Positions 56,633-64,000 of a stretch of DNA of 64,000 bases are shown one piece after another. The notes below the pieces were generated by a model. That model saw nothing but the letters and a program-made list of their open reading frames with translations. It was not told the origin of the DNA and ran no database searches. How positions within the stretch are numbered: position 1 is the stretch's first letter; each line of letters begins with the position of its first letter. The stretch comes from Lentisphaerota bacterium (GTDB taxonomy: Bacteria > Verrucomicrobiota > Kiritimatiellia > CAIQIC01 > Lenti-01): positions 31,077 through 95,076 of the forward strand of contig JAAZBB010000015.1 of assembly GCA_012514035.1 (NCBI GenBank), written 5' to 3'. The position numbers were made by a program, and so were the translations under genes.

Positions 56633-58315
56633 GTGAAAGCTACAGCAGAACGCCTTTACTGGATTATGATTGTTGTATTGCCGTGCGCTTTTGTGTTAGC
56701 GGCGGGAGCCATGGGGGTATGGGCCTTGATGGATATGCCCGTGATGGGAATCAAGCTGGCCTTTGCGGATCATGGCATTCGGGTTGCGGCGATTGAGGAC
56801 GATGGACCCCTGGCGGGGCTGATTGTGCCAGGGGAATATGTGCGCGCCATCGGGAACGTACAATTGGAGCGTGACGACATCCTGCGTTATCCCGAATTTG
56901 TTGAGCGGAGGGATGAAAACGCCTGGTGGAACCGGCAGAGAGCCATATACGACGAATTGAAAAATAACAATCCGGTTGATCTGGCCATCGTTTCGTCCGC
57001 TCAGGAAGAAAGAACCATCCAGATCAAAACCATTCAGTGGCCGCTGCGGTCGGTGATGACGCGCGGATTTCCCGTCTTCCTGTCCGGCGCGATCCTGGCC
57101 GTCATGTCGCTCGTCATATATGCCTTGAGTCGCAGTCCGGTGCACCGCACCTGCCAGGTGTTTTTCGTGTCGCTGGGACTTTACCACATGGTGACGGCCC
57201 CCATGGCCTTGCGGGAGATTGCGCTGTGCCCCTGGATGGAGCGGGGGATGGCTTACGTGGCTTTCATCTCCGCGGGGGCTTGCATTGCCTTGGCCCATTT
57301 TTCGTTGATTTTTCCCAGGCGCAAGAAGTGGGTGGTGACGCACCCCTGGCTGCTTGGACTCCCCTATCTGTATTTTGCGGTGTCGGTTGGCCTGTATCTG
57401 GCCGGCATCACGGCGTTTGGCTCCACCTGCCTGTGGGTCGTGTTCTGGGCTCTGCTGATCGTGGGGGCTACCCTGCATGCCTATGTGACCGAGGAAGACC
57501 TGTTGCTGAAGCGCCAGATTCTGCTGTTCCTGATGATTCCCGTCTTGCTGGCCATTTTCTTCTGCATGTACATCATCATTCCCGGCGTCATGCGCACCAA
57601 CATGTTTCAATATTCGTATTTTGCGATTCTATCGATCGCCTCGGTCTTTTCAATGGCGCTGGCGGTGGAAAACCAGCGCATCTATCAAGCGGCGCTCGCA
57701 AAGGAGCAGGCCGATCTGCGGGACCGGCTGCAGATGGTGCGCGAGGTGCACGACAACTTCGGCAACGTGTTGTCCGGCATCGTGCGACTGGCAGACCGGG
57801 GGCATTTGCCTGACGGCGCGGATTCGGCCGCCTCCGCGGTGCTGCCCCAGATCCACGGGGTCGCCCAACACTGTCTGACGGAGATGCGGGACTTTATGGT
57901 GGCGATTGATCCGGTGTCGTCCCGTTGGGAAGACTACGTGGTCCAATGCCGCGAACATTTCGCAGACTATCTAGCCGCTTTCAACATCCGGCTGACCTTG
58001 CATGCGGCGATCGATGCGGCTTGCGAAACCATCCGTCCGTCGGTGCAGTACCATTTGACCGGAATTTTACGGGAGGCGCTTGGAAATGTGATCAAGCATG
58101 CGGGGGCGGATGAAGTCCATGTCGAACTGGTGGTTCGCCATGGGGGATCGGAACTGACGATTGAAGACAATGGCGCGGGGTGCCGGGAGCCCGCGCGGAC
58201 CTTCGATGCCTATGGGCTGTCCAACATGGAAGGTCGGGCCAAAGAGCTGGGCGGGAGTTTCCGCATGGAATCGACCGCCGGAGGGTGCCGGTTGCGGGTT
58301 GGATTTTCTCCCTAA
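56633..58315 (+). CDS. membrane sensor histidine kinase (HisKA_3/HATPase_c, NarL-partner type)
   Basis: Six to seven transmembrane helices. H-box VREVHDNFGN. ATPase motifs REALGNVIKHA and EDNGAGC. Start codon uncertain: GTG 56633 or ATG 56666. Confidence 0.78.
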   Translation: MKATAERLYWIMIVVLPCAFVLAAGAMGVWALMDMPVMGIKLAFADHGIRVAAIEDDGPLAGLIVPGEYVRAIGNVQLERDDILRYPEFVERRDENAWWNRQRAIYDELKNNNPVDLAIVSSAQEERTIQIKTIQWPLRSVMTRGFPVFLSGAILAVMSLVIYALSRSPVHRTCQVFFVSLGLYHMVTAPMALREIALCPWMERGMAYVAFISAGACIALAHFSLIFPRRKKWVVTHPWLLGLPYLYFAVSVGLYLAGITAFGSTCLWVVFWALLIVGATLHAYVTEEDLLLKRQILLFLMIPVLLAIFFCMYIIIPGVMRTNMFQYSYFAILSIASVFSMALAVENQRIYQAALAKEQADLRDRLQMVREVHDNFGNVLSGIVRLADRGHLPDGADSAASAVLPQIHGVAQHCLTEMRDFMVAIDPVSSRWEDYVVQCREHFADYLAAFNIRLTLHAAIDAACETIRPSVQYHLTGILREALGNVIKHAGADEVHVELVVRHGGSELTIEDNGAGCREPARTFDAYGLSNMEGRAKELGGSFRMESTAGGCRLRVGFSP

Positions 58316-59991: not shown

Positions 59992-61101
59992 ATGAGCCAG
60001 GGCAAATCCAGGATAGCGGTGATGGTGCTTCTAATCGGTTCTGTTATCATGGCATCAGGGGCAACGCCATATGTGGAAACATGGAATGAGGATATTCAGG
60101 GATGGGGGGATCGGGACGCCGCGGGCTTAGCTGTCCAACATGATTCTGAATCGGGCATTCCCCCGGGAGCCCTCATGGGGATGTTTTCGCCGCAGGAAGT
60201 TCCAATGCCCGAGGCGGACGCATTCCATGCAACCGCGACTTCCTCTGCCGGGGCATATATTGGAAATTATTGGCAAATGCAAGACGGATTCTTCGGCTGG
60301 CGTTTCGATTTCTATGCCGCGCGGGTGTTACCTTCGGATTTGGTGGTGCGTTTCGGCGGCGCCGGAAATGTGTTTTTTACCAATGTGAAACCCCAAGTGG
60401 GTGGCACCGGGACATGGTATGCCGTACAAACGCCGGCGACATATGAGGGTTGGTTTGGCGGCACCGAAATTCAATGGTCCAATGCTCTTGCAAACGTGGA
60501 GTTTGTCGAGGTGCAATTGACCCGCAACACAACGCAAGAACAAATCTACTACATAGATAATTTCAGCAATACATCGGAAGATTCAAGCGGGGTTGTATTA
60601 TATTACTTTATCGCACGGGAGGAAAACGGCCATGTTGTGCTCCACTGGCGTACGGCCTCGGAAAATGACACGGTTGGATATTGGGTGGAACGTTGGGATC
60701 GGACCCATTGGGTTCGGGTGAATGACGAAATCATCTATGCTCGCGGTGATGACGGCATGGGTACCGCATATGCCCTGGTGGATGATAAGGCAAAAGCCGG
60801 TGTCGCTTATCGCTATCGATTGGTGGAGGAAGAGGTCGAGGGCGAACAGGTATATGGCCCATTTCACCGGATCGCAAGTGCACTGGCATTCCCTTGTCCG
60901 GTTATGCCAGCGCAGGAAGGAATGTGCATTCGTTGGTTAAGTCGTCAGGGCGAGAATTATAATATTCTGCGGACCAGTGACATGTGCGATGGATTTGTTC
61001 CGATCGCCATCGGCATCGCCGCCACGCCTCCAGAGAACGAATACATCGACAAAACGGCCGGAAGCAGAGGAATTTACCGGATCGAATTGCAGGAAGACTG
61101 A
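59992..61101 (+). CDS. secreted hypothetical protein (paralog family 1)
   Basis: Signal-peptide-like N-terminus MSQGKSRIAVMVLLIGSVIMASGA. About 52% GC. Roughly 45% identical over ~250 aa to the start of the next gene. Confidence 0.5.
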   Translation: MSQGKSRIAVMVLLIGSVIMASGATPYVETWNEDIQGWGDRDAAGLAVQHDSESGIPPGALMGMFSPQEVPMPEADAFHATATSSAGAYIGNYWQMQDGFFGWRFDFYAARVLPSDLVVRFGGAGNVFFTNVKPQVGGTGTWYAVQTPATYEGWFGGTEIQWSNALANVEFVEVQLTRNTTQEQIYYIDNFSNTSEDSSGVVLYYFIAREENGHVVLHWRTASENDTVGYWVERWDRTHWVRVNDEIIYARGDDGMGTAYALVDDKAKAGVAYRYRLVEEEVEGEQVYGPFHRIASALAFPCPVMPAQEGMCIRWLSRQGENYNILRTSDMCDGFVPIAIGIAATPPENEYIDKTAGSRGIYRIELQED

Positions 61102-61372
61102 CATTTACAAAAAGGCCCGATGGACAGCAAGCGGCAGCGGAGGCGCTTTGGCGCAGTTGAGAAAATCAAAGACGCCCATGTAGGGGCTTGAGATGTGGAT
61201 CAGGCATTTCATCATGAGCCATCTCGCCGGATCCCGACTCTCCATCATACGTTGGGTATTGCCATCGTGTGTTGATGTGCAGAAAACAACGCTGTGGTTG
61301 CCAAGTCAATGTGAAACGCCGACGTAGTCACAATGGCAGGCACATTGCGCTGTATGCAATATCGGAGAAGTC

Positions 61373-63282
61373 GTGAAAAGTATTAGTGAACTGCATGCAA
61401 TGTGGGCGGTTTTATCGCCCGCATATTCTTTCGAGGCGTCGCGCCATCTGAAAACATGGGTGGAATACGGAAAGCGGCGGCAGTTCAATGAAACAGGAGG
61501 AATGGCAGTTGCGCACGACGCTTCCGCGGGAACCCCAGCCGACTTACTCATGGGTTGGTTCGGCTTCCCGAAACATTCTGTGCCGGAAGTATATGCATTT
61601 CGGGCGGCTGAAGGTTCATCGGCCAGCGCATTCACAGGGAATGATGGGGGCCTTCCCCATGGTTATGAAGGCTGGCGATTTTCATGATCGTGCCGAACAT
61701 ATCCGTGCCGTCGGATGTTCTGGTTCGTATTGGAGGCGCGGGTTCCGTCTTTATTGTTCCTGTCAAACCGCATAATGGCGGAATTGGCGAGTGGTGTAAT
61801 TTGCACACCTTCGCATCGTATGTGGGGTGGATCGAGGGTACAGAAACGCAATGGTCCCATGCTCTCGTAAACGTGATGTACGCCGAAATTCATACCATGC
61901 GCAGCGGAACTGGTGAACAGATTTGCCGTGTGGATGGGTATGCCAACGCCGCCGATGGATTTGTCGTTCTGGAGATCAGCCAAACCTCCATCAAGATCCG
62001 CGAAAACGGCGAAGTTCGTTTCCACGTATGGTTGAACCTGGAGCCCGCATCGACGGTGGTGGTAACGGTGTCGCGCACATCCGGCAGTGAGAGCATTGTC
62101 GTTCAAAAAGGCGCGAAAATGGCGTTCGAGCCGATCCGTCGGGATGCTGGGCAGGAGGTGAGTCTTTCGCAGGCGTCGGACGCAAATTCGCCGAGCAAAG
62201 AGGCCACCTTATCGGCGTCCATAGAAGGGGGCGAGGATGTGACCAATGAAACCGTGGCCGTGGGCAGCGGTGTCGGCGTAAACCTTGCTTTCGCCTCGGC
62301 GGGAAGCGTCGCAACCGCACAGACGGGCTCTTGGTCCCGGACCGGACAGGTTAATGACGGAGTACATGCCGTTCGGACCAACGATGGTTGGACGGCGTGG
62401 ACGAACTTATCGGCGCCGGGGTTTATGGCGCTGGATCGCCAGCAAGCCTTGACGGTCTTGCGGGTGCGTTTGCTGAACTGGAACTGGTTCCGGCCGATCC
62501 AGCGGTATCAGATGGAGTTGTCGAGGGACAAAGAAACCTGGACGATCCTGGCGAATGCGAGTGTCAACGTCCGCGAAGGCGGCGCGCTATTCGAGAATCC
62601 CATCACCGGGATTCCGGCGGGCATGGCCTGGACCTGCGGGGATAAAAGGTTGGTGGGGCAGAGCGGCGTGACCTTTGAGTTCAAATCGGCCAACTGGAAT
62701 GTCTGGCGTCTGGTGACGGGGGCTCAGGCGGCGGACGAGAACCGCGACAACGAAACAGCGATGTTCATGCTGTCGATGCTGGGGTTCTCGCAGGACGCGA
62801 CAGTATTGGCAATGGCACTGGACAGGGACATTGGCGAGACTCTGGCTCTGGCCTCGCGAGGAACGACCATCGCGCGGAAGAAGGCGATCCGGGCGGTGCA
62901 GTTGATTGACGGCCTCCAGGCTTTGAGCCTGCTGAATTCCGAGTTGGAAGTCGACAGCTCCCCGTCTCCCCCGCAGGGGCAAGGACAGTCTTTGACCCTG
63001 AGTCGGGAGGGCAGTTCCATCTCGGCGCTGACCAGCGGCGGGCCGCAAAACGAGACCGATTGGCTGGCCGTGGAGGTGACCGAGGAATCGCGATCGGATG
63101 CCCGGATACTCTACAGCCAGGATTACGAGGACTGGCGGTCGTTGTCGGAGGACATGGAGGCGAATCCGGTTGCGCTGAACTTCCTGTGTCGGCTCTTCCC
63201 GGGCAATGGCGCCGCCGCCGTGTCCCATGTGGTGGATATTTGGGCGAATCCCAGCGGGATTAGGGCAGTGGAGGAATTGTGA
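61373..63282 (+). pseudogene. paralogous secreted protein with discoidin-like C-terminal region, split by a -1 frameshift in a T4 run
   Basis: Track ORFs 61373..61687 and 61684..63282 are collinear with the 59992 paralog (WRF|DFYAARVLPSDLVV against WRFS*/MIVPNISVPSDVLV). A single extra T at 61679-61682 would restore the frame. Confidence 0.5.
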
Positions 63283-63401
63283 TTGCGGGAGAAGAGTACC
63301 CGGATCATGCGGGGAAGACGGATGGATCGTCGCAATCGATAAACGGGTTAACGCGATGTGGAGCGGGTGTCGATGGGGGCGAAGGGGCGGAGGTTGTGAC
63401 G

Positions 63402-64000
63402 ATGAAGTCAAAGAACGCTGGCGGACGCGGATCGCGCTGCGGTTCTCTGGGGAACAAACTGAAGCGCGCCTCGTTGCTGATCGGGGCCTGCAGTGGATTG
63501 TGGACAGTGGCCGCCTCGGCCCAGGAATCCATCACGCATGTTGTTTTCGGTTATACCGGCAGCAATCAAACGTTCACGGTCCCGGCGAATGTGAACCAGG
63601 TCATGCTCACGATGTGGGGCGCGGGCGGCGGGGGGGGGGCGGGGACCGGCGGGGCGGGCGGTTATTCCAAGGGGTTGATTGCCGTCACGCCGGGGCAGGA
63701 GTTGACCGTCATTGTCGGCGGCGGCGGACAAGGGTGCCAATCCTTGGCACGGGGGGGCTGGCCCAACGGGGGGGATTCCGGGAATACGAACGCCGGATAC
63801 TATGGCGCGGGCGGCGGTGGCCGTTCGGCTGTGACGACGAGTGAAGGAGTTGATCTGATTGTGGCCGGCGGCGGCGGCGCGGCCGGGGCGCACCCCGAGA
63901 CGGCACAGCCGGGCGGCGCGGGCGGCGGGGAGACCGGCGAGGATGCGCCGGCCAGTCCGTGGTACGGCGACTCTGGCAAGGGCGGCACCCAATCCGCCGG
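63402..64000 (+). CDS. glycine-rich secreted protein (ALK-type glycine-rich-domain-like), 5' partial; continues beyond window
   Basis: Signal peptide MKSKNAGG...LLIGACSGLWTVAASAQE. Then TFTVPANVNQVMLTMWGAGGGGGAGTGGAGGYSKGLIAVTPGQELTVIVGGGGQG and further poly-Gly blocks. No stop before the window end. Confidence 0.55.
   Translation, partial: MKSKNAGGRGSRCGSLGNKLKRASLLIGACSGLWTVAASAQESITHVVFGYTGSNQTFTVPANVNQVMLTMWGAGGGGGAGTGGAGGYSKGLIAVTPGQELTVIVGGGGQGCQSLARGGWPNGGDSGNTNAGYYGAGGGGRSAVTTSEGVDLIVAGGGGAAGAHPETAQPGGAGGGETGEDAPASPWYGDSGKGGTQSA

Follow-up and report, generated by a model that had tools for sequence, protein, structure and literature searches.

Two paralogous genes lie in tandem at positions 59992-63282 of a Lentisphaerota bacterium contig (positions are those of the window, the entire 64,000-nt stretch that was analysed), and the second of them, here denoted B, carries a frameshift that is real and fixed in the population. 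We consider B to be, more likely than not, a tandem paralog that was inactivated by this single frameshift and persists as a fixed pseudogene or gene remnant. The first copy, denoted A, is intact. As pointed out in the initial annotation, the GC content here is lower than in the surroundings (0.51-0.53 at 59-62 kb vs 0.58-0.69 in the flanks). An Rfam search of the region yielded nothing, and a scan for promoters and terminators showed no excess over the shuffled expectation.

Gene A (59992-61101, forward strand) is an open reading frame of 369 aa that consists of a signal peptide (aa 1-23), an N-terminal domain of about 170 aa with a predicted carbohydrate-binding module (CBM)-like jelly-roll fold (aa ~24-195; 60061-60576), and a C-terminal beta-sandwich module (aa ~200-369) made up of two beta-sandwich domains and devoid of a PEP-CTERM tail. 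The sequence matches that of P0009, which is annotated as 'hypothetical protein' in Kiritimatiellae MAGs and present on 98 contigs, with 100% identity; the reading frame of A is open in all 21 loci, with one SNP, which is synonymous. Searches of A against Pfam and NCBIfam produced zero matches. Cluster members of 308 and 274 aa, along with a variant of 45 aa, had hinted at a frameshift polymorphism in A, which was considered and, from the two longer forms, dropped. The 308-aa form reflects an alternative start call, because the DNA of all ten carrier loci contains intact A, and the 274-aa forms start at an internal ATG and are otherwise identical in sequence; the check at the DNA level covered the carriers of the 308-aa form.

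Gene B is the reading of 61373-63282 that is obtained when one T is added to the TTTT tract at 61679-61682, which yields a product of 636 aa. A and the repaired B are collinear: of 217 aligned columns, 39% are identical and 53% positive (E 6e-40), in an alignment that spans the break uninterrupted and contains the peptide stretches of both copies quoted in the initial annotation. The paralogy proposed there thus stands, with a shorter extent than the ~280 aa given: about 175 aa are solidly homologous, corresponding to the N-domain, and about 215 aa is the maximum.

As it stands, B is divided into two open reading frames on the forward strand, one base apart in frame. The upstream fragment, B1 (61373-61687; 104 codons with a GTG start), specifies the N-terminal half of this domain and terminates with G-W-R-F-S-TGA, one residue beyond the W-R-F followed by a stop that had been read initially. 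The downstream fragment, B2 (61684-63282; 532 aa), begins with the peptide MIVPNISVPSDVLVR, and its ATG overlaps the TGA of B1 in the ATGA at 61684-61687, an arrangement that may allow translational coupling of the two fragments. In tblastn searches with A, P0011 and six discoidin homologs, a single frame change was found, between 61681 and 61702; the HSPs of A and P0011 change frame once over B, those over B1 being in frame 2, and none of these queries revealed further frameshifts or stop codons in the 1.9 kb of B. The frame switch is confined to 61676-61684, where intact family members read G[WF]xFDF[YR]AA..[LF]PS. A fifth T does restore W-R-F-F-M-I-V, as had been noted, but this does not single out loss of a T as the lesion: the family profile gives much the same score to a 1-nt insertion, at ~100 bits, as to a 2-nt deletion, at 104-109 bits, so that, judging from the sequence, a change from T5 to T4 would be one possible lesion among others. 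A two-event lesion, consisting of a 5-nt deletion and a 1-nt insertion, was suggested by the resemblance of a third-frame 'DFH' to the family 'DFY', and was dropped because it needs more events and fits the length less well.

The N-domain shared by A and B belongs to a family of 296 representative clusters detected at E <=1e-3 in a profile search, for which there is no Pfam or NCBIfam model, leaving the family unmodelled. The usual layout is a signal peptide followed by the domain and a PEP-CTERM segment, most members are 200-300 aa long, and a (V/I/L/A/F/T)PEP motif is present near the C-terminus in 60 of 136 members. A and B resemble the PEP-CTERM/exosortase surface proteins (TIGR02595, PF07589) in that their N-domain is the body domain of this family. 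They differ in the absence of the tail: the PEP-CTERM sorting signal carried by the relatives was matched in neither A nor B, and the C-terminus is formed by two beta-sandwich domains in A and by Ig-like plus discoidin-like modules in B. Against an HMM of the family from which A and B had been left out, A scores 222 bits and the repaired B 100-109 bits, compared with 37 bits for B1 alone and 56 bits for B2 alone.

Structure prediction of the N-domain, suggested in the initial annotation, returned a confident jelly-roll (AF2 of A, pLDDT 96-98 for aa 30-195). The best Foldseek matches in the PDB are CBM11 (1v0a) and CBM30 (1wmx, 2c24), at E 4e-5 to 2e-4 and TM ~0.6, and the predicted domain accordingly has a CBM11/CBM30-like beta-jelly-roll fold. 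Across the type-B CBMs with jelly-roll folds (CBM11, CBM30, CBM16, CBM22), the predicted fold is similar at E 4e-5 to 1e-3 and target-normalised TM ~0.55-0.64, but the sequences are unlike (8-13% identity), the likeness being one of fold alone, and a profile search of the N-domain against PDB sequences gave zero matches. Glycan binding by the N-domain of A is only a guess from this predicted fold. In the model of A, the residues equivalent to the break in B, F105/D106, sit in the strand 102-109. The break would therefore fall inside a core beta-strand of a compact domain, and neither B1 nor B2 is expected to be able to form the domain alone.

The split of B recurs throughout the assemblies examined. 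TTTT is present at the break in 20 of 20 independent metagenome or MAG loci that reach the site; these were collected from ENA, NCBI, JGI and Logan, come from different studies and several assemblers, and lie on contigs of 4.7 kb to 1.67 Mb. In the public protein collections, the B1 cluster has 15 members, every one ending in EGWRFS (104 or 95 aa), and all 12 full-length members examined among the 22 of the B2 cluster are 532 aa long. The fused form of ~636 aa is absent among ~15 billion public protein sequences, where the full-length members of both clusters are all split. Variation in the length of the T tract was seen neither across the 20 loci nor in the members of either protein cluster, in a survey of assembled sequences. 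No ortholog of B with an identity between 36% and 97% is present in the searched collections, and the sole match in a DNA scan of genome contigs is a distant family member. Two DNA scans of a metagenome-contig collection gave no match to the site; the JGI contigs that carry the locus are evidently not part of that collection.

This uniformity bears on two explanations that had been offered at the outset, a sequencing error and a contingency switch, and neither survives well. Single-base homopolymer mistakes do occur in assemblies, but 20 independent assemblies are identical here and T4 is not an error-prone context, which makes an artefact scarcely credible. A site that does behave in this manner is found in the giant gene further downstream, where the run at 63630 reads G10 in 15 of 21 sequences. 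In five of the 21 loci, the G-rich stretch around it is garbled or marks the end of the contig, an example of an artefact-prone site in contrast to T4. This run was itself considered as a switch and rejected, since the deviations are contig ends or G-rich junk.

Slipped-strand phase variation at the T tract is hardly more plausible than an artefact. As in the contingency loci of the Campylobacter, Neisseria and Haemophilus phasomes, a homopolymer is located at the break of a gene for a surface-type protein, but the tract in B shows no length polymorphism, as T4 varies neither across the 20 loci nor among the members of the two clusters, and an ON (fused) allele has never been recorded. With 4 nt, the tract is also far below the PhasomeIt cut-offs for phase variation, which are at least 10 for poly-A/T and at least 7 for poly-G/C (PMC6321876).

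Programmed recoding, in which ribosomes would shift by -1 or the transcribing polymerase would slip on the U/T run to make the 636-aa protein from the T4 template, is compatible with a fixed split and two open reading frames, and a -1 shift at UUU would yield exactly W-R-F-F-M-I-V (junction GWRFFMIVPN). We nevertheless regard it as very unlikely. There is no X_XXY_YYZ heptamer; in CGA UUU UCA UGA, a -1 slip places tRNA-Phe on AUU with a first-position mismatch, and a +1 slip re-pairs on UUU but enters the third frame, which is closed at 61775. The predicted fold of 61660-61760 (-31 kcal/mol, z -0.78) is matched or exceeded in stability by 53 of 200 shuffles. Four T are below the length needed for efficient polymerase slippage. 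Moreover, even a fused B would have no signal peptide.

Downstream of the break, B2 encodes the second half of the N-domain, followed by two Ig-like modules, each succeeded by a truncated discoidin module, and by a truncated C-terminal domain. The N-domain portion extends over 61684-61953 (alignment and family profile). The first Ig/Calx-like module (61966-62283), with the motif VxVRENGE.RF..., is collinear with modules of the Kiritimatiellia discoidin-repeat proteins, and the discoidin-like module after it (62284-62562) is missing ~57 C-terminal residues (gap at columns 294-350). The second Ig/Calx-like module (62563-62838) is divergent in its first half and lacks the conserved GRFFVR, at a 6-aa gap; it is followed by a remnant of ~30 aa (62839-62928; LALASRGTTI...LIDGLQALS) of a second discoidin-like module, ~90 aa of which are missing (columns ~479-574). 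The C-terminal domain (63019-63252), common to P0002, P0003, P0004 and P0006, has lost an internal stretch of ~34 aa (columns 635-668). AF2 modelling of B2 from a five-sequence alignment was uninformative (pLDDT 29).

The discoidin-like region, which was recognised in the initial annotation, falls short by the Pfam score of B itself: F5_F8_type_C (PF00754) matches at 62323-62559 with 18.6 bits against a gathering cut-off of 28.2, over profile positions 9-83 of 127. Only by way of homologs in which the domain is present is the assignment secure. The Kiritimatiellia discoidin (F5/8 type C) repeat proteins P0002-P0007, with PF00754 or PF22633, match B at E 1e-78 to 1e-118, and over its last 440 aa B runs collinear with their final two (Ig-like plus discoidin) modules and C-terminal domain at 31-36% identity. 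They are unlike B in having no CBM-like N-domain at the start, and B is unlike them in the large in-frame deletions in its discoidin modules and C-terminal domain. No paper on Kiritimatiellae and discoidin was found in the literature.

Signs of degeneration and of constraint coexist in B. The best 10-residue hydrophobic window at the N-terminus scores 2.99 in A and 1.08 in B, compared with a family median of 2.43, and only nine of 136 members are as low as B; B1 thus lacks a hydrophobic signal-peptide core, and the description of both copies as secreted, made initially, applies to A but not to B. In B1, the near-invariant E29 and W38 are replaced by K and R, respectively, while B1 and B2 jointly retain nine of the 11 near-invariant family residues. 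The large deletions relative to the homologs (~57, ~90 and ~34 aa) are all in frame, and probably predate the inactivation, hence they are no proof of decay.

Within B2, a hyperdivergent tract on the forward strand (61701-62196) exists as two haplotypes, ~6% apart, although the loci hardly differ elsewhere; carriers of either haplotype all have T4. The locus alignment shows 31 differences in the tract, 15 synonymous and 16 non-synonymous, with no stop and no indel. In the B2 frame, pN/pS between the haplotypes is 0.33, and random placement would yield at least 15 synonymous changes with a probability of 0.028; the other two frames would have two and nine synonymous changes, and three to six stops. 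This pattern suggests coding constraint in the tract. Recombinant loci were also found (L011 and L022). Two origins of the divergent haplotype were considered and rejected. Gene conversion from A left no signal, A agreeing with haplotype 1 at 10 variant sites and with haplotype 2 at seven, and mutagenesis of the DGR type was dismissed as the substitutions, by our reading of the list, are not adenine-specific.

Some of these data would also fit a split gene in which both B1 and B2 are translated, B2 by termination-reinitiation at the ATGA, and either B2 alone or a non-covalent complex of B1 and B2 is functional. GAAGG lies 11 nt upstream of the ATGA (61684-61687) and resembles the AAGGA of A with its 10-nt spacing; B2 is open over 532 codons in every haplotype, its frame shows the synonymous bias, B has no additional frameshifts, and the split persists in all 20 loci despite the distance between the haplotypes. 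Against this, the break cuts through one of the core strands of a compact jelly-roll, B1 and B2 lack a signal peptide while the intact relatives are all exported proteins, and the discoidin-like modules are incomplete. The synonymous bias, in addition, is modest, and may stem from constraint that acted earlier than the frameshift, or may have been brought in by recombination from a donor, a possible source because recombinants exist. On balance, a functional split gene appears unlikely. Still less probable, in our assessment, is the stronger form of this explanation, that the split is maintained under purifying selection, with B2 translated via the ATGA or B1 and B2 reassembled, so that a trimmed CBM/Ig/discoidin protein without a signal peptide has acquired a new role. 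Such a protein would possibly be intracellular, or exported piggy-back, its gene being situated beside that of a giant Gly-rich/RHS protein.

We therefore return to B as an inactivated paralog, the reading of the initial annotation, a real pseudogene, that fits best: T4 is uniform, as such a reading envisages, and decay elsewhere in the gene is partial. The reading frame of B is disrupted relative to its intact homologs, as in a pseudogene; that B has ceased to function, and in what order the events took place, is what we infer. According to this scenario, a frameshift at or beside TTTT inactivated the tandem copy and left what would now be a non-functional remnant of a surface or secreted protein of a glycan-binding type. 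Both long reading frames would still be open because the inactivation was recent relative to the mutation rate. B resembles the frameshift pseudogenes that arise by ordinary bacterial decay of tandem paralogs in its single fixed disruption, in the loss of the export signal and in being more diverged from the family than its sister, and its truncated discoidin modules speak for the same interpretation. It is unlike them, and the pseudogene interpretation is countered, in that the frameshift is a lone lesion, the deletions are in frame, the reading frames are open, the haplotype changes are biased towards synonymous ones, and the ATGA combines stop and restart with GAAGG upstream.

The finding is an ordinary one, with little significance beyond annotation. 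The two 'hypothetical proteins' deposited from a population of Kiritimatiellae widespread in digesters and wastewater, HPC19359.1 and HPC19360.1 being one example, are the halves of one disrupted paralog, and an annotation flag is due; the T tract is unsuited to lists of phase-variation candidates. Should expression of B be demonstrated, the gene would illustrate, in a modest way, that a domain-splitting frameshift can be tolerated. As a by-product, the analysis delineates an unmodelled family of ~300 clusters, characteristic of PEP-CTERM surface proteins, whose fold is confidently predicted to be a CBM-like jelly-roll.

A gene at 59992-61101 on the forward strand (A, 369 aa) is followed by two overlapping forward-strand ORFs, B1 (104 codons; GTG at 61373 to TGA at 61685-61687) and B2 (532 codons; ATG at 61684 to 63282), the latter in a frame one base back from that of B1 and already open from 61669. 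The B1 frame ends as GGC TGG CGA TTT TCA TGA (G-W-R-F-S-stop), so that the break lies at TTTT (61679-61682), as described in the initial annotation, but with a serine missing from its reading, W-R-F-stop. An extra T in this tract joins the two ORFs into a 636-aa reading (...GWRFFMIVPNISVPSD...). This repaired B aligns with A at 39% identity and 53% positives over 217 columns (BLASTP, E 6e-40), the break being crossed without interruption; the proposed collinear paralogy holds, over ~175-215 aa and not the ~280 aa originally suggested. In tblastn searches of A, the homolog P0011 and six discoidin homologs against 61000-63500, a single frame change was located at 61681-61702, with no further one found downstream in B2. 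Both the paralogy and the frameshift are genuine. The GC content is 0.51-0.53 at 59-62 kb vs 0.58-0.69 around, in agreement with the island of lower GC noted previously.

The A protein is 100% identical to an entry labelled 'hypothetical protein' in Kiritimatiellae MAGs and is found on 98 contigs. The comparison set consisted of 21 A-carrying loci from independent ENA, NCBI, JGI and Logan assemblies; the contigs are 4.7 kb to 1.67 Mb long and are named in the style of SPAdes and MEGAHIT. Of the loci, 20 extend to the frameshift site, where every one has the sequence GGCTGGCGATTTTCATGATCG, containing four T. Identical copies of the B1 and B2 proteins occur in a public protein collection: the B1 cluster (15 members) ends in ...EGWRFS in 14/14 members reaching the C-terminus, the B2 cluster (22 members) has 532 aa in all 12 full-length members examined, and no fused ~636-aa protein is present. 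Given T4 in 20/20 loci and the split-form clusters, the break cannot be put down to a fault in this particular assembly, and no tract of another length has been recorded; the sequencing or assembly error initially considered is thereby ruled out. A slipped-strand contingency switch, also envisaged in the initial annotation, was rejected because the tract is invariant among these 20 loci and, at four T, is far under the lengths used for calling phase variation (poly-A/T, at least 10; poly-G/C, at least 7; PMC6321876). Exact-pattern scans of the metagenome_contigs collection gave no match to the frameshift site, which is uninformative for this organism because another index shows the locus in JGI samples 3300026290, 3300028593 and 3300026163.

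Downstream of B, a gene at 63402-64000 (running past the window edge; 8411 onwards in the locus L008) codes for a giant protein (5202 aa in L008) of polymorphic-toxin-like architecture, with an ALK/LTK-type glycine-rich domain, DUF2341, RHS/YD-shell repeats and a phospholipase-like domain. Within its glycine-rich coding region, a run at 63630-63639 has ten G (G10) in 15 of the 21 sequences compared; the contigs L019-L022 break off at the run or shortly past it, three of the four following G-rich junk, and a fifth contig (L016) is garbled there. This zone is an assembly and sequencing artefact rather than a demonstrated switch and, in contrast to the T4 site, shows an artefact-prone site in these data, with contigs that end or are garbled. 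Upstream, a histidine-kinase gene (56633-58315) has 10 non-synonymous vs 1 synonymous variants across the 21 loci; five are singletons clustered in one low-coverage contig (L021, 57372-57428) and are likely assembly errors.

The frame switch in B is confined to 61676-61684, between a conserved W (61673-61675) and the B1 stop. Under a family HMM made from 83 independent domains, any 1-nt insertion in 61676-61684 yields ~100 bits and 2-nt deletions yield 104-109 bits; the T5 reading is one residue longer than the family at the break. Because the lesions score similarly and the family is one residue shorter, a T5-to-T4 change is not the sole candidate; it would be a plausible origin among other possible ones. 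Programmed frameshifting is unlikely: no X_XXY_YYZ heptamer was found at the site, a -1 slip would place tRNA-Phe on AUU, a +1 slip re-pairs on UUU and enters the third frame, with a stop at 61775, and no stimulatory fold better than shuffles was detected in the 100 nt downstream (z -0.78).

With the T4 fixed and signs of decay in B, the real pseudogene listed among the initial options is the best explanation: B, a tandem paralog of A, is probably a pseudogene or gene remnant left by a frameshift that has become fixed. In the AF2 model, the site of the break corresponds to the strand of A residues 102-109, which lies in the core of one compact domain. The family HMM score of repaired B is under half that of A, and substitutions have removed 2 of the family's 11 near-invariant residues; both of these (E29 to K, W38 to R) fall in B1. 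The best 10-residue Kyte-Doolittle window at the N-terminus scores 1.08 in B, 2.99 in A and 2.43 in the family median; the hydrophobic core is absent from B, a score as low occurring in 9/136 family members, so that the secretion proposed for both paralogs does not extend to B, which lacks a signal peptide. An 11-bp terminator-like hairpin with a T-rich tail (61400-61424) lies within codons 1-20 of B1, the expected position of a signal peptide; terminator-like sites in the region are no more numerous than in shuffled sequence.

The rest of B (440 aa) is collinear with Kiritimatiellia discoidin-repeat proteins (P0002-P0007) over their last two modules (Ig-like plus discoidin) and their C-terminal domain; on B itself, the discoidin-like region previously pointed out is sub-threshold (PF00754, 18.6 bits; cut-off 28.2). 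Comparison with four homologs shows further losses in B that point to decay: discoidin module 1 is ~57 aa short at its end, ~90 aa are missing from discoidin module 2 and ~34 aa from the C-terminal domain, and Ig module 2 has no GRFFVR motif. Against simple decay, every deletion is in frame, and tblastn with homologs detected no second frameshift or stop in B. This single lesion favors the main rival explanation, which we consider rather improbable, namely, that B is a split gene whose translation continues. It also draws support from the ATGA in which the stop codon of B1 and the start codon of B2 overlap, with a GAAGG lying 11 nt upstream; reinitiation at the B2 start is therefore mechanistically possible and might occur.

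A modest synonymous bias in B2 also speaks for a translated split gene. Two haplotypes are present among the 21 loci (15 vs 5, plus a recombinant), with 31 differing sites in 61701-62196. Across this ~500-bp tract, they are about 6% apart, with synonymous divergence of 0.12; the surrounding 6 kb are nearly identical (at most ~0.3% difference; one SNP in the 1110 nt of A). In the B2 frame, 15 differences are synonymous and 16 non-synonymous (pN/pS 0.33; P = 0.028 for at least 15 synonymous changes when mutations of the same types are placed at random), and the other two frames show 2 and 9 synonymous changes and 3 and 6 stops. Both haplotypes carry T4; given the existence of recombinants (L011 and L022), the frameshift may precede or follow their divergence. 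Gene conversion with A as donor of the tract was ruled out, and no donor lineage was found in the searched databases.

The C-terminus of A (60577-61098; ~170 aa, two beta-sandwich domains) is 59% identical to the protein P0010, where such domains follow a different N-terminus of GYAWxENxGWI repeats, which suggests a shuffled module, possibly with an anchoring role. The ~170-aa domain opening A (60061-60576) and repaired B has no sequence match in Pfam, NCBIfam or PDB and represents an unmodelled family (proteins P0053-P0201; ~300 clusters at 50% identity). Its profile, run against 1.84 billion representatives, retrieved 296 clusters at E ≤1e-3 and 152 at ≤1e-10. Most members are 200-300 aa long, with a signal peptide, this domain and a PEP-CTERM tail; the tails match TIGR02595 and PF07589, and an xPEP motif is close to the end in 60/136. 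In several of the longer members, two separate stretches match the profile, and in some members the tail is replaced by TSP3 repeats, He_PIG Ig domains or SdrD-B-like domains. One member, 66% identical to the domain and followed by SdrD-B-like repeats, lies on a 3.1-kb contig assigned to 'Candidatus Saccharibacteria' (CAZXCI010000007.1, 1-2100), which is probably mis-binned and derived from a PVC-group organism.

Structure prediction for the shared domain, proposed at the outset, gave a confident beta-sandwich (AF2, 82-sequence alignment; A residues 30-195, pLDDT 96-98), for which the best Foldseek matches in PDB are beta-jelly-roll CBMs (CBM11 1v0a, CBM30 1wmx/2c24, CBM16, CBM22; E 4e-5 to 1e-3, TM about 0.6). 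The modeled fold is consistent with glycan binding, which we infer as its putative function. A frameshift-split paralog is an ordinary kind of feature, here in a poorly characterised lineage; of some value as a by-product is the definition, with a fold assigned, of the PEP-CTERM-associated, CBM-like domain family that A and B share.
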